Below, in pieces: positions 25,241 to 42,674 of a stretch of 64,000 nucleotides of DNA. The notes below the pieces were generated by a model. It was given only the letters and a program-made list of their open reading frames with translations. It had not been told where the DNA came from and made no database searches. A program made the translations under genes and the position numbers. The stretch's first letter is position 1; every line of letters starts with the position of its first letter. This stretch comes from Thermoanaerobaculia bacterium (GTDB taxonomy: Bacteria; Acidobacteriota; Thermoanaerobaculia; UBA5066). Location: positions 512,001-576,000 of the forward strand of contig CAWFJJ010000025.1 of assembly GCA_963816185.1 (NCBI GenBank), read 5' to 3'.

Positions 25241-27508
25241 TCACAGACCAATCCGCTTCAGGAGATCCGCGAACCGCGGATCCGCGCGCAGCGGGTCCGC
25301 ACGCGGGTCGACCCGCAGCAGCGCCAGGAAGGGGGTCCGTTCGGCCACGGCCTTGTCGAGCCATTTGAAAGCAAGATCCGTCCGGCCGAGCGCCACTTGG
25401 ATATAGGCGATGTCGAGCGACGAAACGTATCGCCGCGGCGCGAGAGCGGCGAGCTCGGCGAGGATCGCCTCCGCCTCGTCCCGCCGGCCCGAGGCAGCCA
25501 GGCAAGCGCCGAACGAGGAAAGTCGGGTTGGGTCGCGGCCCGACAGTTCAGCCGCGCGTGCTCCAAACCGCGTCGCTTCCGTCCACATCCGCTTCGCGAA
25601 GTAATTCAAGCTCAAGAGGTGGTGCGCGACGGCGAAGTTTGAGTCCATCTCGAGGACCTTTTCTAGCTCGGCGATGGCTTCGTCGTATCGGCGGGCGAGA
25701 AAGAAGCACCAGCCAAGGCTGGCACGGGCGGGAAGAGAGAGAGGATCCAATGCCTCCGCGCGGTGCAACTCCACGAGGCCATCCTGAAACCTCTCCCTGC
25801 TCGTGAGGAAGATGCCGTAGAAGTGATGAACGTGGACGAAATCGGGGCTCGCCGCGATCGCTCGATGGAATTCCTCCTCGGCACCCGACCAGTCCCAGTC
25901 GTACCAGAAACGAACGACGGCGAGAACGGTCCGTGCTTCTCCCAACGACGCGTCGAGCTCCAGCGCCCGGGTGGCAGCCGCCTTCGCCCTGGGAAACGCT
26001 TCCTGCGGCTCAAGATACTGGTAGAAGCCGAGCTGGTTGTAAGAGTGCGCGATCCCGGCGTAGGCGAGGGCGTACTCGGGGTCGACTTCGATCGCCTCCT
26101 TGAACAGCTCGATGCCTTTCCGCAGCCCGTCGGCCGTCCGCTTGTTCCAGTAGAAGAGCCCTTTGAGATAGAGGCGATGGGCCTCGGGGCTCTCCGTCGC
26201 GCGATGCGCGAGGAGCTGCTCGTTCTCGCCCGTGACCTTCACGCGGAGCTTCTCCGAGATCTCCCGCGAAATCTCGTCCTCGATCGCGAGGATGTCGGCG
26301 AACTTCCGGTTGTAGTTCTCGCCCCAGATCTGCGATCCGTCTCGCGCATCCACGAGCTCGGTCTTGATCACGAGGTTGTCCCCGCGATGAAAGACCCTGC
26401 CGGTCAAGACGGCACGGACCTTCAGCTCGCTGCCGACCGTCTGCGGATCGATCTCCCGTCCCTTGTAACGGGAAAGCGTGGTGCGCGCCATGACGCGCAG
26501 GTTCGGAAGCCGGGAAAGGCTGTTGATGATGCTTTCCGCGATGCCGTCGGACAGATACTCCGTGTCCGGATCGGGGCTCGCGTTCGCGAAGGGCAGGACG
26601 GCGATCGATTCAATCGCCGGGCCGTGCTTCCCGGAGGACGACGGGGCTCCTATCGAACCGCTCGTCACTTCCTTCAGATGGAATGCCAGATCCCGCGCCG
26701 ACTGAAACCGCTCTTCGCGGTTCTTCTCCAGACAACGACTGACAACTCTCTGGAGAGGCGTCGGCAGCGCAACCCCGAAAGTGGCGATCTCCGGCGGATG
26801 ATCCCGCAGAATTGAGGCCAGCGTCTCCCCGCTGGAGTTTCCTTCGAAGGCCCGCCGGCCCGAGAGCATTTCGAACAGCAGGCAGCCGAAGGAAAAGATG
26901 TCGCTTCGCGCGTCGACTGCTTCGAGCCTTACCTGCTCTGGCGACATGTAGCCGACCGTTCCGAGAACCGTGCCGGCTTCCGTCTGCATCGATCCCGTCG
27001 GCGAGGAAGTCGCTCCGCCCATGGGGCGCTCTTCCAAGCGCGCGAGACCGAAGTCCAGGATCTTGACGAGGCCTGCGGACGTCACGAAGACGTTTTCCGG
27101 CTTCAGGTCCCGATGCACGATCCCCTTCGCGTGCGCGGCGGAGAGTCCGTCGGTGACTGCGATCCCGATCTCGACGGCCTTTCGCCAACCCAGACGCTCT
27201 CGAGCGATTCGTTCACGGAGCGTCTCGCCATCCAGCAGCTCGGTGACCGCGAAACGAATTCCGTGGTCCTCACCGAAGTCGTGGATCGCGAGAATGTTCG
27301 GATGCGACAGCGCGGCGACCGCCTTGGCCTCCCGCTCGAACCGCGACAGCGCGTTCGCGTCCGCCGCCAGCCGCTCCGGCAGCACCTTGATCGCCACCTC
27401 GCGATCGAGCCGCGTATCCCGCGCCCGGTAGACCTCTCCCATCCCGCCCGCACCCAAGGGCGCGAGGATCTCGTAAGGGCCGAGCCGGGTGCCCTCTTTG
27501 AGAGGCAT
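25241..27508 (-). CDS. Hanks-type Ser/Thr kinase with TolB-N-like domain and TPRs
   Basis: [22 protein letters not shown]; SIAVLPFAN..EYLSDGI; C-terminal TPRs ending DPLRADPRF. Confidence 0.93.
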   Translation of the reverse strand: MPLKEGTRLGPYEILAPLGAGGMGEVYRARDTRLDREVAIKVLPERLAADANALSRFEREAKAVAALSHPNILAIHDFGEDHGIRFAVTELLDGETLRERIARERLGWRKAVEIGIAVTDGLSAAHAKGIVHRDLKPENVFVTSAGLVKILDFGLARLEERPMGGATSSPTGSMQTEAGTVLGTVGYMSPEQVRLEAVDARSDIFSFGCLLFEMLSGRRAFEGNSSGETLASILRDHPPEIATFGVALPTPLQRVVSRCLEKNREERFQSARDLAFHLKEVTSGSIGAPSSSGKHGPAIESIAVLPFANASPDPDTEYLSDGIAESIINSLSRLPNLRVMARTTLSRYKGREIDPQTVGSELKVRAVLTGRVFHRGDNLVIKTELVDARDGSQIWGENYNRKFADILAIEDEISREISEKLRVKVTGENEQLLAHRATESPEAHRLYLKGLFYWNKRTADGLRKGIELFKEAIEVDPEYALAYAGIAHSYNQLGFYQYLEPQEAFPRAKAAATRALELDASLGEARTVLAVVRFWYDWDWSGAEEEFHRAIAASPDFVHVHHFYGIFLTSRERFQDGLVELHRAEALDPLSLPARASLGWCFFLARRYDEAIAELEKVLEMDSNFAVAHHLLSLNYFAKRMWTEATRFGARAAELSGRDPTRLSSFGACLAASGRRDEAEAILAELAALAPRRYVSSLDIAYIQVALGRTDLAFKWLDKAVAERTPFLALLRVDPRADPLRADPRFADLLKRIGL

Positions 27509-34399: not shown

Positions 34400-36172
34400 G
34401 TGCGCCGGATTCTCGCCCTCGTGGTCGTCCTCGCCGTGGCGGCCGGCGCCGTGGCGTGCAGCCTTCTCCTGAACGGAGAGAGCTCCCGGAGGAAGGACGT
34501 CACGGGCTCCCTGTTCACGGATGTCACGAAAGAGTCCGGAGTGCGCTTTCGGTTTCACGGCGACCTCATCGACGCCAAGCTGATCCCCACGATGGGCGGC
34601 GGCGCGGCGCTCGCGGACTTCGACGGAGACGGGAACCTCGATCTCGTCCTCGTCCAGCAAGTGAAGAGCGCCACGAAATGGCGGAAGGCGGGACGGACGC
34701 AGCCCCTGGCCGAGTGCACGCGCCTCTTCCGGAACCGCGGAGACGGGACGTTCGAGGACGTGACGGAGAGATCCGGCGTTGTCGCCTGCGGATGGGGCAT
34801 CACGGCGATGTGGGCCGACCTCGACAACGACGGCTTCCCGGACCTCGTCATCGGCAATGCCGGCGAGCAGAACCTCGTCTTCCGCAACAAGGGCGACGGG
34901 ACGTTCGAGAGGATGGAGAAGACGGGCCTCGAAGGCGGCAAGTTCACGGTCGGGCTTGCCGCCCTCGACATCGACGGGGACGGGCTCCCGGACGTCTACA
35001 TCGGGAACTACCTCGAGACGGACCCCGACCGCGAATCCAAAGCCAAGCCCACGTCCTTCATGACGCCCGACGAGTACAAGGGGCAGGACAACCAGATGCT
35101 GAGAAACCTCGGCGGCTGGAAATTCGCCGACGTGACCGACGCGAGCGGCACGAGGGATCCGGGCAGCAAGACGATCGGAGCCGTCGCGCTCGACTACGAC
35201 GGCGACGGAAGAACCGATCTTTACGTCTCGAACGACCAGTGGCGCAACACGCTCTTCCACAACGAGGGCGGCGGCCGGTTCCAGGACGTGTCGGACGAGA
35301 CGGGCACGGGCTATCCCGAGGAAGGCAGCACGACCGCTTTTGGGCGGAGGACGCGCAGCGGCATGGGGCTCGTCGCGGCGGACCTCGACGGCGACGGCCG
35401 GCCCGACCTCTACGTGACGAACTACGCGAACGAGCCGAACACCCTTTATCGAAACGTCGAGGGTGCGACGTTCGCGGAGAGCGAGGTCGAGGCGTTCGGG
35501 GGCGACCGCGATCCGGTCCTCCCGCTCTCGAAGTGGGGCGTCACGGCGCTCGACTTCGACAACGACGGCAGGGACGATCTCGCGGTCTCGAGCGGCCAGA
35601 TCCTCTCCCGCTTCTTCACGGTCCTTGCGGGGTGGTTCAATCCGGCGGGTCGGAACTTCGCCGTGGGCGAGAAGAGCTACGCGCAGCGGCAGTTCCTTTT
35701 CCGCAACGAAAGCGCGCCCGGGGCGATCAAGTTTCGCGACGTCTCGGCCCAGTCCGGCGACCTCGGCCGTCTGTGCGTGGTCGGGCGCGGGCTCTCGGCC
35801 GGCGACCTCGACGGCGACGGGAAAGAAGACCTCGTCTTTAACCCGATCGACGTGGCGGCCGTCGTCCTCCGCAACACGGCGCCGGGCGGGCGCGCACTGG
35901 AGATCCTGCCGGCCGTGGGCGCGGACCGCAGGACGGTCCTCGGGACGAAAATCACGGTCGGGGGGCGCGCGAAGGAGTTCTACGTCGTGCCGTCCTACGC
36001 GAGCGGTTCATGGTTGCCGCTTCACTTTGGGCTGGGAGAGGCGACCTCGGCGCGTGTGGCCGTACGGTGGCCGGACGGAACGGCGCAGGATCTCGGCGAG
36101 CTTCCCGCCGGCGCGTACAAGCTCGTGAAGGGCCTGGCGCCCGCCCCTCTCCGCGCGAAGCCGATGAAGTGA
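34400..36172 (+). CDS. CRTAC1-like lipoprotein (FG-GAP/VCBS repeats + ASPIC/UnbV)
   Basis: Lipobox AVAC; repeated DxDGDGxxDL; LHFGLG, VRWPDG. Confidence 0.88.
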   Translation: MRRILALVVVLAVAAGAVACSLLLNGESSRRKDVTGSLFTDVTKESGVRFRFHGDLIDAKLIPTMGGGAALADFDGDGNLDLVLVQQVKSATKWRKAGRTQPLAECTRLFRNRGDGTFEDVTERSGVVACGWGITAMWADLDNDGFPDLVIGNAGEQNLVFRNKGDGTFERMEKTGLEGGKFTVGLAALDIDGDGLPDVYIGNYLETDPDRESKAKPTSFMTPDEYKGQDNQMLRNLGGWKFADVTDASGTRDPGSKTIGAVALDYDGDGRTDLYVSNDQWRNTLFHNEGGGRFQDVSDETGTGYPEEGSTTAFGRRTRSGMGLVAADLDGDGRPDLYVTNYANEPNTLYRNVEGATFAESEVEAFGGDRDPVLPLSKWGVTALDFDNDGRDDLAVSSGQILSRFFTVLAGWFNPAGRNFAVGEKSYAQRQFLFRNESAPGAIKFRDVSAQSGDLGRLCVVGRGLSAGDLDGDGKEDLVFNPIDVAAVVLRNTAPGGRALEILPAVGADRRTVLGTKITVGGRAKEFYVVPSYASGSWLPLHFGLGEATSARVAVRWPDGTAQDLGELPAGAYKLVKGLAPAPLRAKPMK

Positions 36173-36197
36173 CGTTTCTCGAGCGGTGAAGGGGGCA

Positions 36198-36287
36198 GGG
36201 GGAAACGCGACCGTGTTTCCCCCATCACTCGCAGTCGCTGTAGCCCCCCTTCCTCGGTCAGACCGCGCAGCGGTTGGGGCTACAGCG
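36198..36287. repeat. Two hairpins between convergent genes
   Basis: GGGGGAAAC..GTTTCCCCC (36198-36223) and CGCTGTAGCCCC..GGGGCTACAGCG (36236-36287). Confidence 0.7.
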
Positions 36288-37188
36288 GCGTCACGTTGAC
36301 GTCTTCGCGCCGCGCGGCCGCCTCGGCCGCGGCCACGCTGATCGCATCGACGCCGTCCGCGCTCTTCAGGCTGCCGCGCGACATGCCGAAGGCCGCGAGG
36401 AGGTGACGCGGCGGCGCAAAGTCGAGGTCGGGCTCGTTCACGAAGAGGCGTCCGAGATTCTCGACGTAGGCCGACGTCAGCTCCTTCCAGGAGATCCGGT
36501 CGAACTCCTGCGCCACTTTTCGGCTTCCGAGGGACAGGAGGACGAGCGAGTGGAAGACCATCTGGTAGATGGCCTTCAGGCGCGCGCGGCTTCTCTCGGG
36601 GTGGTGCTTCAGGATCTCGCGGATGAAGTGCACGTTGAGCGGCACGTGGAACGACTCGTCCCGCGTGAGAATCGTGAGCACCTGCCGCGCGAGAGGCTGT
36701 TTCACACGCCGGAGCGACAGCCGGTACGTCGTGGCGCCGATCGTCTCGAACATGAGGTTCGTCAGCATGATCGATTCCATGCGCTCGGCCTTCGCGTAGG
36801 TCCTGTAGAACGAGCTGACCATCCAGCCCATCTCGGTCACGGCGCCGCCGATGTGCGCGAGGAACTCGTCGAGGAGCTCGCGGTGCCAGCCCTCCTCGTT
36901 GCCGTAGAGCACGAGGCACTCGGCGAGGTCGGGATCCCACGCCCGGACTTCCTCGGCGAGCCTGTGCGCGCCGGCCTTCCCCGACTCCTCGGCGCGATAC
37001 GCCGCGTTGAAGAAGCTGATGCAGGCGAGGCGCTCTTCCTCGGACTCGAACGCGACGGGTTTCGACAGGTCGAGGCGCTCGCCGTACATCCTCTCGGCGC
37101 GTTTCTTGAGCGTCTCGAGCCACCAGGCCGTCGGGCGCTGCGTCGGGATGCCGATGAGGGTGGAAACGGAGCCTTTCGCGAGCATCAC
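36280..37188 (-). CDS. Ferritin-like di-iron protein
   Basis: AEE, NEEGWH, FE and DESFH give an E/ExxH..E/ExxH ligand pattern. Confidence 0.75.
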   Translation of the reverse strand: MMLAKGSVSTLIGIPTQRPTAWWLETLKKRAERMYGERLDLSKPVAFESEEERLACISFFNAAYRAEESGKAGAHRLAEEVRAWDPDLAECLVLYGNEEGWHRELLDEFLAHIGGAVTEMGWMVSSFYRTYAKAERMESIMLTNLMFETIGATTYRLSLRRVKQPLARQVLTILTRDESFHVPLNVHFIREILKHHPERSRARLKAIYQMVFHSLVLLSLGSRKVAQEFDRISWKELTSAYVENLGRLFVNEPDLDFAPPRHLLAAFGMSRGSLKSADGVDAISVAAAEAAARREDVNVTPL

Positions 37189-37248
37189 CGCGCGGGATGA
37201 TGCCGAAACCGCAACCGCGTCGTCAAACGGGGGAGGACCGCCCCAGCG

Positions 37249-37659
37249 TCAATGCGGCTCGACCCGGAGGTGGCCGGTGAGAACCTCGCGGCCGGGCACG
37301 AGCCGAATCTCGATGCGGAAGTCCTCGCCGGAAGAAGAGAGCCCGGGCAGGGTGAAGAAGAGGGGGAGGTTGAATCCCCGCCCGGGCTCCAGGCGGGTGG
37401 GATAGGCGAGCATCCGGCACTGGCGTGTCTGCCGGGAGCGCTCGCGGCCCTCCGAGTCGAGGAGGACCATCTCGAGGAGGGGACCCGCTTCCGTGGATCC
37501 CTCCCACGCTTGAAGGGTCTTGTTCCGGATTTCGAGGTGAAGGAGGACCTTGCCGGGCTCCGTCGCGCTCGGCACGACGACCGGCTGCGGCGCATGGAGC
37601 ATCAACGACAGCGTGACGTCGCCAGCCGGCTCTTCCTTCGGCAAGCTACTTCTCAGCAT
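37249..37659 (-). CDS. Hypothetical protein, beta-rich (possibly Ig-like)
   Basis: AAAGGAG RBS; alternating beta-strand pattern (LLHLEIRN, LEPGRGFNL). Confidence 0.6.
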   Translation of the reverse strand: MLRSSLPKEEPAGDVTLSLMLHAPQPVVVPSATEPGKVLLHLEIRNKTLQAWEGSTEAGPLLEMVLLDSEGRERSRQTRQCRMLAYPTRLEPGRGFNLPLFFTLPGLSSSGEDFRIEIRLVPGREVLTGHLRVEPH

Positions 37660-37737
37660 GTCGGTGCTCCTTTCGAGCGAAACATTCCCCAGACGCCCCT
37701 TTGGCGTAGCTGGTTCGACAAACTATCCGTGGGCGTG

Positions 37738-37893
37738 TCAGCCGATGGGTCCGACGCTCGCCCCGATGGGTCCGACGCTTGCTCCGATGGGTCCGACGCT
37801 CGCTCCCGTTCCGCGATCGATATCGCGGGAACGCGCGAATCCGCCGAATTCGAAACCGGAGAAGACGTCAAAAAACGCAAAAAGAAACGCCAT
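37738..37893 (-). CDS. 51-aa peptide with a Phe-rich leader and 3x GASVGPI repeats
   Basis: AGGAGG 4 nt before ATG 37893; all differences between the repeats are synonymous in this frame. Confidence 0.65.
   Translation of the reverse strand: MAFLFAFFDVFSGFEFGGFARSRDIDRGTGASVGPIGASVGPIGASVGPIG
37742..37804. repeat. Three tandem 21-bp repeats
   Basis: CCGATGGGTCCGACGCTYGCY x3. Confidence 0.95.
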
Positions 37894-37913
37894 ACGTCCT
37901 CCTACCCCGATCC

Positions 37914-37956
37914 GGACAGGTGTGTATTTCTCCTGCCCTTCACCTAGTAGGACAGG
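37914..37956. promoter_or_regulatory. Three alternating heptamer sites upstream of the peptide gene
   Basis: GGACAGG-N11-CCTGCCC-N11-GGACAGG. Confidence 0.45.
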
Positions 37957-37987
37957 GGACACGGGCCGTTTTGACCCCCGACGCTCG

Positions 37988-38017
37988 AAAAAACATCGGC
38001 CGCCCGAAGGCGGCCGA
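37988..38017 (-). terminator. Rho-independent terminator after the TPR gene
   Basis: TCGGCCGCC-TTCG-GGCGGCCGA followed by TGTTTTTT on the minus strand. Confidence 0.75.
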
Positions 38018-38046
38018 GTGAATTCGCGACAGATCGGTGGCTGTGT

Positions 38047-39309
38047 CTAGCCGACGAGCCTCAGCGGGCGGTACGCACGTTTAACGCCATTCTCTTCGTT
38101 CTGCAGGTACTCGCGGACGTGCGCGATGAGGTCCGCGTCGATCGTGCCCTGATCGAGGCAGACGAAGAGTTCACCGAGAGCCGGCGACGGGGAGAAGCGA
38201 GAGTCGCGTCGATCGCGACGAATGCCATCGACCTCGGCGGCCATGGCGTTCAAATTGCCGAGATGGCCGAGGCACTCGGCGACATGCAGTCGTGCGAACA
38301 GGACTTCCATCGGCGATCCTGTGATTTCAGCCTCGCGCGCGATTTCTGCGAAAGCGCGCAGCGCCTGCTGGTAGCGCTCGCGACGAAAATCGAGTTCGGC
38401 GAGACCGTTTCGTACGAAGAAAACCGTCGACGTGAAGCCATGCTTTCGAGCGAGATTCAACGCACGTGCGAAACCCGCGCGCGCCTCTTCGAATCTCTCG
38501 AGCCGGGCGAGAGCGTTTGCCCGATTGTTGAGAGTCATGGCCAGCGGCTGTGCATCACACTCGGGATCGAACGCCTTAATCGCACGATCGAGCCGGGAGA
38601 GAGCTCTCAGGTCGTCACCGCGCTGCAGGAAGAGAGTCCCGAGAGCTGCCTCCGCACGGGCCACGAGATGATCCTGCCCGAACTCCGCAAAGGACGAAAG
38701 TGCGCTCTTGAGCTTCTTCTCCGCCGAGCCGTAGTCCTTTGCGAACCCGGCCGCCTGACCTTCATAGTAGTCGCACAGAGCCTGGCCGAACCCGAGGTCT
38801 CCCGACTGCCGGAAGAACTCTCGGGCCGGCTCGATCGCCGCTCGTGCGGAATCGGCCTCGCCGACCTGCAAAAAGGCGTGAGACCTGAGGATCATCGCTT
38901 CGGCTTGGACCGCCTGTCTTGGCGCCGGCGTCGTGAGTCGGGAGTCGCGATTCACATCGAGAAGAGAGGATGCTTCCGCGAGAAGCTCATCTGCGAAATG
39001 AAGTGCGACCCTTGGATTCTCGGAAACGAGCGGCCCCGCCTTCTGTGCCGCGTACAGCAGAGCAAAGCCCCGGTAGGGCTTGCCGTCCAGCGAGCGGAGC
39101 GCGGCCGCGAGTTCGTCGGCGCCGGACCGGGCGGCATTCAGGATCAGCTCGGCGGGCTTCTCGGCGTCCTGTGAAAGCTGGTAAATCTCTTCCACGGAAA
39201 CGCGAGCGTTGGCTCTCACGAAGGGGAGCGTGCGGCCCATGGCCTCGCGCGGCAGCTCGGGCACGAGCTCGCTCTCGAGGATCGCGTCGAAGACGTCATC
39301 CTTCTTCAC
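38047..39309 (-). CDS. TPR-repeat protein (about 420 aa)
   Basis: Helical repeats (ARAEAALGTLFLQRGD, AMTLNNRANALARLERFEEA); GTG 39309 overlaps the upstream stop (GTGA). Confidence 0.75.
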   Translation of the reverse strand: MKKDDVFDAILESELVPELPREAMGRTLPFVRANARVSVEEIYQLSQDAEKPAELILNAARSGADELAAALRSLDGKPYRGFALLYAAQKAGPLVSENPRVALHFADELLAEASSLLDVNRDSRLTTPAPRQAVQAEAMILRSHAFLQVGEADSARAAIEPAREFFRQSGDLGFGQALCDYYEGQAAGFAKDYGSAEKKLKSALSSFAEFGQDHLVARAEAALGTLFLQRGDDLRALSRLDRAIKAFDPECDAQPLAMTLNNRANALARLERFEEARAGFARALNLARKHGFTSTVFFVRNGLAELDFRRERYQQALRAFAEIAREAEITGSPMEVLFARLHVAECLGHLGNLNAMAAEVDGIRRDRRDSRFSPSPALGELFVCLDQGTIDADLIAHVREYLQNEENGVKRAYRPLRLVG

Positions 39310-39794
39310 GGTCTCAGCCTCACGAGTCCGGCACGGAGGCGGTCCCACAGCGTGCGCCGGAAGGCGCGCATCGGCGCGGTCCTGGGAGACGCGGGCGCGG
39401 TCTCGACGCGGACCTCGATCTCGCCCGATTCCGCGAGCCTGAGATCGCGCACGACGAACGCAGGCCCGGAATCCCCGATGCCGCGTCTCTCACGCGCCTG
39501 GAGAAGGTTGTTGCACTGATTCAGGAACGCCGCGCGCAAGTACGCCTTCGGGTCGCGCACGCGCGGGTTCATCGCGAGCACCTTGAGGAAGACGGTCTGC
39601 GCGGCTCCCTCGCATTCGTCCTGCGTGAGGCCGAACCGGATGACGCCGGCCGCGATGAGGCGGGGGCGGAACTTCGCGTTCAGCTCCTCCCAGTTCCAGA
39701 CGGGCCGCGCGGGGGCAGTGACCTCGACCGGCGCGAACCGGGCGCGCTGCCTTTGCACCTCGTCGGGCGGAATCTCTACGAAGTTCCGGGACAT
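39306..39794 (-). CDS. ECF-sigma-like protein with region 2 only
   Basis: WEELNAKFRPRLI..RFGLTQDECEGAAQTVFLKV..AYLRAAFLNQCNNLLQ resembles sigma70 region 2; no region 4 HTH seen. Confidence 0.6.
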   Translation of the reverse strand: MSRNFVEIPPDEVQRQRARFAPVEVTAPARPVWNWEELNAKFRPRLIAAGVIRFGLTQDECEGAAQTVFLKVLAMNPRVRDPKAYLRAAFLNQCNNLLQARERRGIGDSGPAFVVRDLRLAESGEIEVRVETAPASPRTAPMRAFRRTLWDRLRAGLVRLRP

Positions 39795-39821
39795 CTTTCC
39801 CCTTACGAGAAGAGCCCTTAT

Positions 39822-39851
39822 ATGCTACGCCCGCTTTCCGGCAGGGGTCAA
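39822..39851 (-). promoter_or_regulatory. Sigma70-like promoter for the sigma/TPR pair
   Basis: TTGACC-N18-TAGCAT on the minus strand. Confidence 0.4.
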
Positions 39852-39920
39852 CCGGAACCTCGCAGACAACCCTAATTCAACGCTAACGTCAGACATCCGG
39901 AATCAGAGGGGTGGGCTCGC

Positions 39921-42674
39921 ATGGCGACTAAGAAGAAGGCTAAAGCAGCACCGAGGAAGCTCGTTTACTCGTTCGGAGCGGGAGCTGCCGAGGGAAGAGG
40001 CAGGCAGAAGGACCTGCTCGGCGGCAAAGGGGCGAACCTGGCCGAGATGGGGCGGCTTGGCCTGCCGGTGCCCCCCGGCTTCACCATCACGACCGAGGTC
40101 TGCACCTTCTTCTACGACAACAAGAAGAGCTACCCCAAGGGTTTGCGCAAGGAGGTCGCGACCCACCTGAAGGGGATCGAGAAGAAGCTCGGACGCACCT
40201 TCGGGGACCCGAAGAACCCGCTGACGGTGTCCGTTCGATCGGGCGCGCGGGCATCCATGCCGGGCATGATGGACACGATCCTGAACCTCGGCCTGAATGA
40301 CGAGACGGTCGAAGGTTTGGCGCAAGTCTCGAAGACCCCCCGCTTCGCCTGGGACTGCTACCGGCGGTTCGTGGCGATGTACGGAGACGTCGTTCTCGAG
40401 CTGAAACCGCTTGACAGGCACGAGCGGGACCCGTTCGAGGTCATCCTCGAGAAGAAAAAGAGCGCCTACAAGGTAAACCTCGACATGGAGCTCCCGGTGC
40501 AAGCCCTCCGGGAGCTCGTGCGCGAGTTCAAGGCCGAGATCAAGAAGCGTACCGGGAAGACCTTCCCGGACGATCCTCTCGAGCAGCTCTGGGGCGCGAT
40601 TGGCGCCGTGTTCGGCTCCTGGATGAACGACCGCGCGAAGGTCTACCGGCAGCTCAACGGAATTCCGGAGAGCTGGGGCACCGCGGTGACCGTCCAGTCG
40701 ATGGTGTTCGGCAATCTCGGCGGCGACTGCGGAACGGGCGTCGCGTTCACGCGCGACCCCGCGTCGGGGGAGAACGTCTTCTACGGCGAGTACCTGATCA
40801 ACGCGCAGGGCGAGGATGTCGTGGCCGGCGTGCGCACGCCGCAGAAGATCGCGACGCTCGGCAGGAAGATGCCGAAGGTCTACGCGGAACTGCTCGGCAT
40901 CCGGAAGACGCTCGAGGACCACTACGGCGACATGCAGGACATCGAGTTCACGGTGGAGGCCGGGAAGCTCTGGATGCTCCAGACGCGGACCGGCAAGCGC
41001 ACGGGCTTCGCGGAGGTGCGCATCGCCGTCGAGATGGTCGAGGAGAAGCGCATCACGCCCGAGCAGGCCGTCCTGCGCGTGAACCCCGACTCTCTGAACC
41101 AGCTTCTCAGGCCGATCTTCGATCCGGCCGCGAAGGCCGAGGCGATGGGCGCCGGCCAGTTTCTCGCGAAGGGTCTCAACGCCGGGCCGGGCGCCGCCAC
41201 GGGGCGCGCCGTCTTCACGGCGCTCGACGCCTTCGAGTGGGCCGAACGCGGCGAGAAGGTGCTCCTCGTACGCGAGGAGACGAGCCCCGAGGACATCAAA
41301 GGCATGAACGCGGCGGAGGGCGTCCTCACGGCGCGCGGCGGCATGACGTCTCACGCCGCGCTCGTCGCGAGGCAGATGGGCAAGGTGTGCATCGTGGGCT
41401 GCGAGACCCTGCGGATCGACGCGCAGCAGCGCCTCATGACGATCGCCTCGCCCGGCGCGAAAGAGCCGCGCATCGTCCACGAGGGCGACTGGCTCTCCAT
41501 CGACGGCTCGACGGGCGAGGTCATCGAGGGCCGCATCGGGACGAAGCCGTCCGAGGTCCTGCAGGTCATCCTCGACCGCTCCCTCGATCCGAAGAAGAGC
41601 GAGGTCTACCGGCGCTACGCGACGCTCATGAAGTGGGCGGACAAGGCTCGGCGCCTGAAGGTGCGCGCGAACGCCGACCAGCCGGACCAGGCCACGAACG
41701 CCGTCGCGTTCGGGGCCGAAGGCATCGGCCTCTGCCGCACGGAGCACATGTTCTTCGGCGGCGAGCGCATCACGGCGATGCGCGAGATGATCCTCGCGGA
41801 CAAGACCGAGGACCGCGAGCGTGCGCTCGACAAGATCCTCCCCATGCAGCGCGAGGACTTCGTCGGCCTGTTCCGCGCGATGGGGCCGCGCCCGGTGACG
41901 ATCCGGACGCTCGACCCGCCGCTCCACGAGTTCCTTCCGCACGGCGAGAAGGAGCGCGAGAGCGTGGCGCGCCAGGCCGGCGTCGACCCGCGCACCGTGG
42001 CGCGCAAGGTGGCCGAGCTGCACGAGATGAACCCGATGCTCGGGCACCGCGGCTGCCGCTTGGGCATCTCGTTTCCCGAGATCACCCGCATGCAGACGCG
42101 CGCGATCCTCGAGGCCGCGTGCCGCGTCAAGAAGGAAGGCATCGACGTGAGGCCCGAGATCATGATTCCACTCGTCGGCCACGTGAACGAGCTGGCCGAC
42201 CAGGCGAAGATCGTGCGCGACACCGCGAAGAAAGTCTTCGAGGCGGAAGGGATCAAGGTGAGCTTCCTTCTCGGCACGATGATCGAGCTGCCGCGCGCGG
42301 CGGTCACGGCGGACGAGATCGCTCGGGAGGCCGAGTTCTTCAGCTTCGGGACGAACGACCTCACGCAGACGACGTTCGGGCTCTCGCGGGACGACGCGGG
42401 CAAGTTCCTGCCCGAGTACGTGCGGCGCGAGATCCTGCCCGCCGATCCCTTCGAGAGGCTCGACCAGATCGGCGTCGGCAAGCTCATGAAGATGGCCGTC
42501 GAGCTGGGGCGCTCGACGCGCCCGGATATGCACCTCGGGATTTGCGGCGAGCACGGCGGCGACCCGTCCAGCGTGGAGTTCTGTCACCGCATCGGCCTCG
42601 ACTACGTGTCCTGCTCGCCGTTTCGCATCCCGATCGCCCGGCTGGCCGCGGCGCAGGCGGCGCTGAGGAAGTGA
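39921..42674 (+). CDS. ppdK: Pyruvate, phosphate dikinase
   Basis: [25 protein letters not shown] phospho-His motif, [24 protein letters not shown]. Confidence 0.97.

Follow-up and report, generated by a model that had tools for sequence, protein, structure and literature searches.

Ribosomal peptide signals that are sensed by cytoplasmic receptors made of tetratricopeptide repeats (TPRs) are regarded as a speciality of the Bacillota and their phages, and pairs of a sigma factor of the extracytoplasmic function (ECF) type and its anti-sigma factor are regarded as stress sensors. A 64,000-nucleotide stretch from the genome of a Thermoanaerobaculia bacterium, a soil acidobacterium (GCA_963816185.1, contig CAWFJJ010000025.1, positions 512,001 to 576,000; the whole of this stretch is called the window), contains a locus that suggests both principles were combined in an uncultured soil lineage. 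Four genes that lie in the same orientation on its minus strand encode a sigma-like protein, a TPR protein, a small peptide and a protein of 136 residues (orf136). The cassette is best explained as a reduced member of a group of lineage-specific three-part modules, each made up of an ECF-like sigma factor, a TPR protein and a peptide gene with its own ECF-type promoter, and on balance such a module probably consists of a cognate peptide and TPR receptor wired to an ECF sigma factor, with a reduced form in the window.

In the RRNPP quorum-sensing systems of Bacillota (Rap/Phr, NprR/NprX, PlcR/PapR and AimR/AimP) a propeptide is secreted, taken up again and bound by its receptor, which, Rap excepted, has an N-terminal helix-turn-helix. 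They share several traits with this arrangement, namely a cytoplasmic TPR-superhelix receptor with a small gene directly behind it, an active part at the C-terminal end of the precursor, discrete types of receptor and peptide, and several modules per genome. Unlike them, the window TPR protein has no sequence match to the receptor family and no helix-turn-helix (HTH), the output proposed here is an ECF-type sigma factor and not DNA binding or a phosphatase, the precursor can carry up to four identical tandem units with no canonical signal peptide, and the host belongs to an Acidobacteriota genus. In its available portion, the RRNPP_Detector survey mentions neither sigma factors nor Acidobacteria (PMC10075063). 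A sequence-only reading of the window had likened the locus to RRNPP and arbitrium layouts; the likeness holds for the layout and for the diversification of receptor and peptide, but not for sequence, HTH or taxon, and the ancestry appears to be that of an ECF-like sigma factor with an anti-sigma-like TPR partner. Judged by homology, the system belongs by descent with ECF sigma/anti-sigma pairs, and not with RRNPP by any sequence test.

In the full-length relatives, as in ECF sigma factors with zinc-binding (ZAS-type) cytoplasmic anti-sigma factors, the sigma gene overlaps that of a partner starting with H-x3/4-C-x2-C, and an ECF-type promoter adjoins. The differences are that the window copy has neither sigma region 4 nor the Cys/His extension, that the full-length members score below thresholds and show no zf-HC2 domain, and that sensing falls to a long TPR superhelix, whose counterpart is a peptide encoded in the genome. 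In the available portion of the ECF reclassification, TPRs occur only at the C-terminus of ECF42, as an extension, or as part of a FecR-like protein in ECF267 (PMC7826278). A feedback of comparable form is seen with MibX/MibW, where microbisporicin increases its own production by way of an ECF sigma/anti-sigma pair (PMC4973701, available portion); a ribosomal peptide product and ECF sigma/anti-sigma feedback are common to both, the latter being a proposal here. The peptide of that system, as far as the same portion of the source describes it, is a heavily modified lantibiotic from a large gene cluster, its anti-sigma factor is not a TPR protein and no type diversity is reported. A polypeptide with sigma region 2 only is still functional in SigO-RsoA of Bacillus subtilis (PMC7826278, available portion), but the present cassette encodes no region-4 partner, and nothing has replaced region 4, as reduced modules have the same TPR protein domains as full-length ones. 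The literature searched for this triad gave no account of an ECF-like sigma factor with a TPR partner and a co-varying multi-copy peptide, nor of these peptides.

The peptide gene and its co-variation with the TPR core

The peptide has a hydrophobic N-terminus rich in F, a charged linker and, as the last 21 of its 51 residues, three identical ASVGPIG units; Tandem Repeats Finder reports the corresponding 21-nt x 3.1 repeat at 37742-37808, inside the open reading frame (ORF). The ORF of the relatives starts M-D/E/N-F-L-F-A-F-F and runs to between one and four 7-residue units, which end in Pro-Ile-Gly/Ser/Asn, with an immediate stop. A ribosome-binding site (RBS), the ATG and a stop directly past the last unit are found in 21 of 23 aligned related spacers, the exceptions being L015, which looks frameshifted, and L027, which reads through, both from long-read assemblies. 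All 19 distinct multi-unit genes keep the period of 7 residues, and between their adjacent units there are 93 synonymous codon changes against 11 nonsynonymous (4 and 0, respectively, in the window gene), and therefore selection has acted on the peptide sequence of every unit. By these patterns of conservation the peptide gene is real and translated, in agreement with the earlier claim of a separate peptide gene. The 21-nt repeat had also been considered as non-coding DNA, which was rejected on the conserved ORF and the synonymous bias between units. A leader-peptide attenuator for orf136 was likewise rejected, as paralogous peptides have no orf136 behind them.

With a profile built from 13 peptides, 59 predicted proteins of 40-56 residues were recovered from a database of 5.8 billion proteins, the named ones being entered as 'hypothetical protein'. 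They display 27 distinct C-terminal heptamers, the commonest being ISSTPIG (13), MGVGPIS (7) and ASVGPIG (5). The window peptide and two relatives matched no Pfam family at E<=1. One database peptide, P0299, mixes types, with one TGVGPIS followed by three TGYGPIN, and looks recombinant or intermediate.

The locus was compared along its length with seven relatives. In the nearer ones the nucleotide identity is 84-91% for sigma region 2, 90-94% for orf136 and 81-88% for the spacer that holds the terminator and promoter (70% in one relative), and in two relatives of class C (the sigma architecture classes are given below) it is 67-82% for these three segments. TPR codons 125-370, here called the core, are only about 60-62% identical to all seven regardless of distance, and the peptide gene 26-67%. 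Synonymous divergence is 1.4-1.8 in the core versus 0.25-0.34 in sigma region 2 and orf136. This variation is organized by peptide type, with core identities of 81-93% within types versus 52-64% between them, and the types cut across sigma architectures: ISSTPIG/IASTPIG loci, two of class B and two of class A, have cores that are 81-93% identical, the xGVGPIS loci, with class B locus L041 among them, 87-93%, and the ASVGPIG allele of the window is at most 64% identical to any other.

The grouping is confined to the core. It is seen neither in the ends of the TPR protein (residues 1-125 and 370-420) nor in the intervening ~350 nt, which takes in the spacer together with the final 50 codons of the TPR gene and the opening 14 of the peptide gene, and whose letters are 75-85% identical in all listed pairs. 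Partial Mantel tests on the 31 loci in which both TPR gene and peptide are complete gave a correlation between core and unit of 0.49 given the ends and of 0.51 given the intervening segment (0 of 5000 permutations each), and reverse values of 0.015 for ends and unit and 0.075 for intervening segment and unit given the core, although a Mantel test on related sequences overstates significance and there are few independent type switches among roughly a dozen types. The type-specific columns, defined as fixed within types and differing between at least four types, all fall within residues 185-328 (10/10). Such co-variation of peptide and TPR core supports the pattern expected of a ligand and its receptor, and the matching of variable segments across a homogenised spacer supports their being the product of selection for a fitting pair.

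The window TPR protein matches Pfam TPR_12 (E=7e-12); scans of Pfam and NCBIfam gave only generic TPR models and no HTH, as the sequence-only reading had anticipated, and database homologues with a name are called only 'tetratricopeptide repeat protein'. Its structural model (pLDDT 86) has a disordered stretch (residues 1-36) that is nevertheless conserved, with F7, P17, G25, L28 and F30 invariant, a helical N-domain (39-113) and a superhelix (~130-406), and is that of a cytoplasmic protein, as a hydrophobic segment is absent. The search with Foldseek, which had been proposed as a check against RRNPP proteins, did match Rap, NprR and phage Rap (ranks 22-46, E 1e-5 to 2e-4, TM 0.46-0.55), but eukaryotic LGN/Pins came first, with E about 1e-6, and designed TPRs also ranked above Rap/NprR. 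The similarity to Rap/NprR is thus that of TPRs in general, because LGN/Pins rank best. LGN/Pins bind extended peptides in their inner groove, and the predicted fold is compatible with a peptide groove and not specifically RRNPP-like. Prediction of a complex between the TPR protein (19-row alignment) and the peptide precursor (13-row) scored 0.02 against a mark of 0.32, without controls, and so speaks neither for nor against binding.

Reduction of the sigma factor and its TPR partner

The 162-residue sigma-like protein has no Pfam match at E<=1 and a weak NCBIfam match to SigX4 (E=0.0038, residues 42-104). Its earlier designation as sigma region 2 is therefore weak by profile and yet correct, because relatives of 189 residues carry Pfam Sigma70_r4. 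Of 1074 candidates from the database search, 146 proteins passed E<=0.01, and the few with a taxon name are all Thermoanaerobaculia or Acidobacteriota. They take four forms: 159-167 residues, 71-98% identical over the full length; ~189 residues, 80-90% identical over the first ~100 and with a Sigma70_r4 match; 144 residues; and ~104 residues. All 48 invariant columns of a 16-sequence alignment lie in the first 101 residues. The window protein lacks ~26 residues of region 4, of which a remnant, TLWDRLRAGL, aligns with TVWKRIQECL of the full-length relatives, and this loss identifies it as a truncated derivative of a divergent ECF-like sigma factor. Of the two regions by which an ECF (group IV) sigma factor is recognized, it has region 2 and that remnant of the last region-4 helix only. 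A split sigma factor of the SigO-RsoA type was looked for, and no match to region 4 or an HTH was found in the TPR protein, peptide or orf136. The idea that region 4 is hidden in the TPR N-terminus was rejected, as the same N-terminal region is present where the sigma factor has its own region 4.

The TPR protein has been shortened as well. In the full-length relatives it begins with an extension of ~55 residues with the motif H-x3/4-C-x2-C, and the window protein starts after it; the N-terminal HxxxCxxC domain by which ZAS-type anti-sigma factors are defined is gone. Four classes were distinguished among 27 related loci from species-representative genomes. Class A (9 loci) has a sigma factor of 188-194 residues and the extension, with H-x4-C-x2-C; class B (9 loci and the window) has 159-162 residues, a 4-nt overlap between the two genes and no extension; class C (8 loci) has ~104 residues, also with the overlap and no extension; and class D (1 locus) has 144 residues and the extension. 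When metagenome loci were added, the TPR match started 149-158 nt after the sigma stop in 17 of 17 loci with a sigma factor of at least 188 residues, a gap that leaves room for the extension, the extension itself having been read directly in the 9 genome loci. The 4-nt overlap without extension was found in 23 of 23 measurable loci with sigma factors of 102-162 residues (classes B and C, the 144-145-residue class being excluded). Region 4 and the Cys/His extension thus appear from these alignments to have been lost together in window-type copies. The joint loss fits an extension that is the anti-sigma part holding region 4, as in ZAS proteins, and the reduced pair cannot act as a conventional sigma/anti-sigma pair.

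The deletion of both segments could also mean that the pair is a decaying remnant, being lost after duplication, and that the peptide/orf136 operon alone is functional. The stepwise shortening of sigma factors among relatives (189, 162, 144 and 104 residues), the weakly constrained sigma tail (ratio of nonsynonymous to synonymous substitution rates, dN/dS, of 0.45 in class B), the existence of full-length paralogues and interrupted TPR frames in L015, L016, L027, L029 and L036 are all in keeping with decay. The interrupted frames, however, are mostly in long-read assemblies and may be errors. For sigma region 2, dN/dS is 0.19 in class A, 0.10 in class B, which is that of the window, and 0.13 in class C, and for the TPR protein it is 0.21-0.24 in all classes, so that the truncated classes have values equal to or below the full-length ones; moreover, the frames stay open in classes B and C, which differ by ~35% in sigma sequence. 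Low dN/dS and the overlap kept in every measurable truncated locus indicate that the region-2 protein and the TPR protein are maintained by selection, and decay is held to be very improbable.

Two more sigma/TPR pairs are encoded by the genome that contains the window, one on contig C28 and one on contig C5, with a complete sigma region 4 and with ~55 extra N-terminal residues in the TPR protein that include HVTAGCPSC or HVAGCRTC. Peptide genes follow the TPR genes there (...VSTTTIGG x2 and ...SIKPIGG), as they do in another genome (...INAGPIG x3 and ...GTKPIGP). These paralogous triads, two loci in each of the two genomes, have no orf136, and the core of the family is therefore sigma factor, TPR protein and peptide, with orf136 as an add-on of the module that adjoins the dikinase gene. 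Of the 15 other genomes examined, 13 have full-length sigma paralogues (40-46% identity, region 4 covered), with all classes represented. The possibility that truncated sigma factors are limited to genomes with full-length paralogues was dismissed, as paralogues in all classes leave no contrast. Among 301 sampled Acidobacteriota genomes the sigma family occurs in 6: all 4 from the genus of the window (G000 counted) and, at 31-32% identity, both from another family of its order (G039 unpublished), with none elsewhere among the 301.

Three side observations concern these loci. At the C5 locus the TPR gene is split into two overlapping frames (L009:5277-6708; tblastn break near query residues 254-262), by either a frameshift or an assembly error; a small histidine kinase with a membrane anchor is encoded behind the peptide gene, and Ser/Thr kinases flank the locus. 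In the other family, the distant sigma factor of L077 (31% identity) is accompanied by a TPR protein that starts with a canonical H-x3-C-x2-C. The neighbouring gene on the opposite strand encodes a large membrane protein whose EExxxR-like motif, judged by eye, recalls CPBP proteases.

Putative promoter, proposed output and the genes downstream

The sequence-only reading had placed an operator-like array between the terminator and the peptide gene. No repeat array was found in that spacer, which holds instead a conserved promoter-like motif and a hairpin in the 5' untranslated region (5'-UTR). The 23 aligned spacers give the consensus GGGGGTCAAA(A/G)-N13-15-CTGTC(T/C)TAGT, and the motif precedes the peptide gene in 31 of 31 loci examined. 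The regular expression GGGTCAAA-N11-17-TGTC has 5 hits in the 5.09-Mb genome. Sigma/TPR/peptide loci account for all 3 that contain GGGGG: one precedes the window peptide, one precedes the C28 peptide and one is ~140 nt behind the latter. The third type of paralogue has GAAAAC-N13-CGTCTC. An AAC-type -35 element with a GTC-type -10 element is the layout typical of ECF promoters. The stem of the 5'-UTR hairpin is kept by paired changes (GGACAG/CTGTCC, GGGCAGGTG/CACCTGCCC, GGCAGGA/TCCTGCC). The terminator predicted after the TPR gene was recovered as a 9-bp GC-rich stem and T run, and is conserved in all of the aligned spacers except those of the two or three most distant loci, though the number of terminator-like sites in the region (3 vs 3.1 expected) is not above chance. 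A GC-rich hairpin between the peptide gene and orf136 is at the same place in long-spacer relatives.

Class A sigma factors and the C28 paralogue have almost identical recognition helices in region 4 (SPKTVWKRIQ and SKKTVWKRIW, respectively) and have the promoter motif in common, so the sigma factors of the family probably drive the peptide genes. In its own genome the C28-type sigma factor may then serve the promoter of the window peptide and orf136. The additional motif copy behind the C28 peptide gene (GGGGGTCAAAG...CTGTCT, L008:6343-6385) has no obvious ORF after it and may drive a small RNA or an antisense transcript; the counterpart of this locus in G169 (L078) has no second copy.

It had been proposed that peptide binding to the TPR protein controls the sigma-like partner, which may hold in the full-length relatives but, in the conventional way, cannot hold for the window copy. 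In full-length modules the heptapeptide would be the cognate ligand of the TPR core, its binding would alter the hold of the TPR protein on the sigma factor, and the sigma factor would drive the peptide promoter, closing an autoinduction loop. What remains of this in the window is a coupled pair of sigma-region-2 protein and putative TPR receptor, with region 4 and the Cys/His extension deleted. Such a pair cannot itself read a -35 element. Most likely a full-length paralogue of this genome serves the conserved -35-like motif of the peptide/orf136 promoter, and the role left to the local pair would be that of a modulator or sink that responds to the peptide.

One more specific form of this proposal is a genetically encoded peptide pheromone of a diderm phylum. 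Multi-copy heptapeptide precursors would give rise to unmodified xxxxPIG peptides, for which the TPR domain of the anti-sigma-like protein would be the cytoplasmic sensor. Many strain-specific pherotypes would be maintained by diversifying selection, and the output would run through an ECF sigma factor and not a DNA-binding receptor, in some lineages, that of the window included, through one cut down to region 2 that keeps functioning with the receptor. This form is put forward tentatively, as a possibility that we rather doubt. Should the peptide be secreted, cell-cell signalling in Acidobacteriota would be open to direct test, and if a region-2-only sigma factor does work with a receptor, this would be a new kind of output directed at RNA polymerase. 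The locus has further uses as a natural series of receptor/peptide allele pairs, where at least 27 heptamer variants can provide specificity controls for binding work, and as a natural experiment on region-2-only sigma fragments, through the stepwise loss of region 4 and the anti-sigma extension with region 2 constrained.

Several points weigh against a peptide receptor wired to a sigma factor. Besides the discount that applies to the Mantel tests, the TPR core and peptide are ~0.5-1.2 kb apart, and linkage over this distance contributes to their correlation. The Cys/His extension has no zf-HC2 match at E<=1 and the full-length sigma factors score below the Pfam gathering scores (22.0 vs 24.1 bits for r4 and 15.7 vs 24 for r2), so that the term anti-sigma rests on position, motif and co-loss with region 4. 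At L077 (G301) the sigma/TPR pair has no room for a peptide gene, with 38 nt to the next gene. The promoter motif is equally conserved where the local sigma factor has no region 4, which means that the local sigma factor is not needed or that something else reads the motif. The precursor has no canonical signal peptide, as judged by eye, and there is no transporter/exporter, peptidase or oligopeptide permease (importer) among the flanking genes.

The last two absences favour a purely intracellular peptide, an anti-anti-sigma-like partner that titrates the TPR protein, whose types would insulate the 2-4 paralogous modules per genome; that several paralogous modules per genome need insulation and that the modelled receptor is cytoplasmic also speak for it. 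Insulation leaves unexplained, however, why one orthologous locus has many discrete alleles within one genus (27 heptamers in 59 peptides) and why the TPR core is at ~60% nucleotide identity beside flanks at 87-94%, and identical tandem units under purifying selection suggest the release of several copies of one product. An intracellular role is considered unlikely.

The most conserved gene of the cassette is orf136; 18 close relatives share 78-98% identity with it and the three most distant ones 40-49%, and its dN/dS is 0.13-0.14. Its model (pLDDT 85) is an Ig-like beta-sandwich of predicted cytoplasmic location. VIA matched it to accessory domains of GH2 (Z 10.2) and to the Bacillus intracellular proteinase inhibitor BsuPI (Z 9.6, tied with many Ig-like domains), with 41 chains at Z>=8; Foldseek gave E=1.6e-4 for the BsuPI structure 3isy, and a cluster among its language-model neighbours carries BsuPI (score 0.92). 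No Pfam match at E<=1, PF12690 included, and no match to an enzyme family was found, and the structure matches assign no function to orf136. A ferritin-like di-iron protein of 302 residues is encoded after it (36280-37188, minus strand), with a weak Pfam match to AurF (E=0.0037), Atlas neighbours in rubrerythrin, FA_desaturase_2 and AurF clusters (top score 0.97) and no sequence match in the PDB at E<=1. A second, convergent TPR paralogue without a sigma factor lies directly behind orf136 in L019, L020, L021, L032 and L036, and in L036 the start of the di-iron gene is ~2 kb past this paralogue.

A rival view is that the locus makes a secreted natural product similar to ribosomally synthesised and post-translationally modified peptides (RiPPs), the multi-core precursor being cut or modified by orf136 and/or the di-iron protein, with the TPR protein as a scaffold or chaperone and the sigma factor as a pathway regulator only. 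Multi-copy cores are common in RiPP precursors, the order of precursor and then enzyme with a hairpin before orf136 resembles precursor attenuators, and the di-iron oxygenase-like gene follows in 14 of 27 genome loci. NCBIfam HaaA_phane_TPR also matches the TPR protein (E=5.7e-5) and the di-iron protein (E=0.0022), weakly and far below the cut-off, and a lantibiotic cluster with ECF sigma/anti-sigma feed-forward is known in MibX/MibW (PMC4973701, available portion). On the other hand, neither orf136 nor the di-iron gene is present in the paralogous triads, and the latter is missing from some orthologous loci too. By fold, orf136 is a simple Ig-like sandwich, and it matches no enzyme family; the cassette and its flanks gave no significant match to a known RiPP enzyme family. 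The peptide co-varies with the TPR core, whereas orf136 is nearly invariant across peptide types. A RiPP-like product is judged distinctly unlikely.

Layout and neighbourhood of the locus

Most of what the sequence-only reading had described of the layout was recovered, including four genes on one strand, a promoter ahead of the sigma-like gene, translational coupling through GTGA and an RBS of the 136-residue gene (Table 1). The sigma stop and the GTG start of the TPR gene share 4 nt (ccGTGAag, the sigma gene ending CCG TGA). Promoter-like sites number 2 in the 4.2 kb of 36000-40200, against a shuffle mean of 0.2.

Table 1. Positions of the cassette features within the window.
Feature	Position	Strand	Remarks
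Sigma-70-like promoter match, TTGACC-N18-TAGCAT	39822..39851	-	5' of sigma-like gene; putative
Sigma-like gene, 162 aa (truncated ECF-like sigma)	39794..39306	-	Region 2 intact
TPR gene, 420 aa counted from GTG	39309..38047	-	Coupled to sigma stop
Hypervariable TPR core, residues ~125-370	38200..38934	-	~60-62% nt identity to every relative compared
Intrinsic terminator	38017..37987	-	9-bp stem (8 GC) at 38017-37996, then T run
ECF-type promoter-like motif, GGGGGTCAAAAC-N14-TGTCCTACTAGGTG	37941..37979	-	5' of peptide gene; presumed active
5'-UTR hairpin, GGGCAGG...CCTGTCC	37914..37938	-	Stem conserved
Peptide gene, 51 aa	37893..37738	-	RBS TAGGAGGA at 37904-37897; ATG at 37893
Heptapeptide units, ASVGPIG x3	37803..37741	-	Stop directly after last unit
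Small GC hairpin, possible attenuator	37693..37707	-	Between peptide gene and orf136; read from sequence
orf136, 136 aa	37659..37249	-	Own GGAG-type RBS

The suggested check of neighbourhood conservation showed the sigma-like gene, TPR gene, small ORF and orf136 co-occurring in fixed order in all related loci of sufficient length. A divergent pyruvate phosphate dikinase gene precedes the sigma gene. Of the 27 genome loci, 22 have orf136 downstream, and the contigs of the remaining 5 stop before its position. Beyond the di-iron gene a convergent FG-GAP gene was matched in 12 loci. The flanks of the cassette encode a Ser/Thr kinase with TPRs, a PAP2-like protein, an FHA/OmpR-type regulator, a PIN protein, a molybdopterin oxidoreductase, a dienelactone hydrolase, an FG-GAP/ASPIC protein, pyruvate phosphate dikinase and RNase II. 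An Rfam scan of 37100-40000 (E<=1) returned only a chance-level match to RsmV (13.9 bits vs a gathering score of 100).

The lower GC content that had been noted was confirmed, at 0.608-0.626 over 37500-38999 in 500-nt windows versus 0.66-0.70 in both flanks. The TPR gene is the sole gene of the cassette to fail a filter on GC content at third codon positions (GC3 >= 0.78), which its neighbours pass; this failure matches the GC dip and fits a fast turnover or exchange of the TPR segment.

That the cassettes of relatives are transcribed is hinted at by contigs from RNA libraries (4 runs, 3 studies; 85% likeness), which cover orf136, the TPR 3' end and sigma region 2, as well as promoter, terminator and the beginning (5') of the peptide gene; these are contigs that may stem from carried-over DNA, no run contained as many as half of the words, and the uncovered parts count for nothing either way. 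One RNA contig of 768 nt connects the 3' end of the TPR gene with orf136, and 214 of the letters in between are unlike. Finally, Ser/Thr kinases fused to TPR domains are encoded at 25241-27508 on the minus strand, ~10 kb from the window module, and beside the C5 paralogue (L009:7618-10197).

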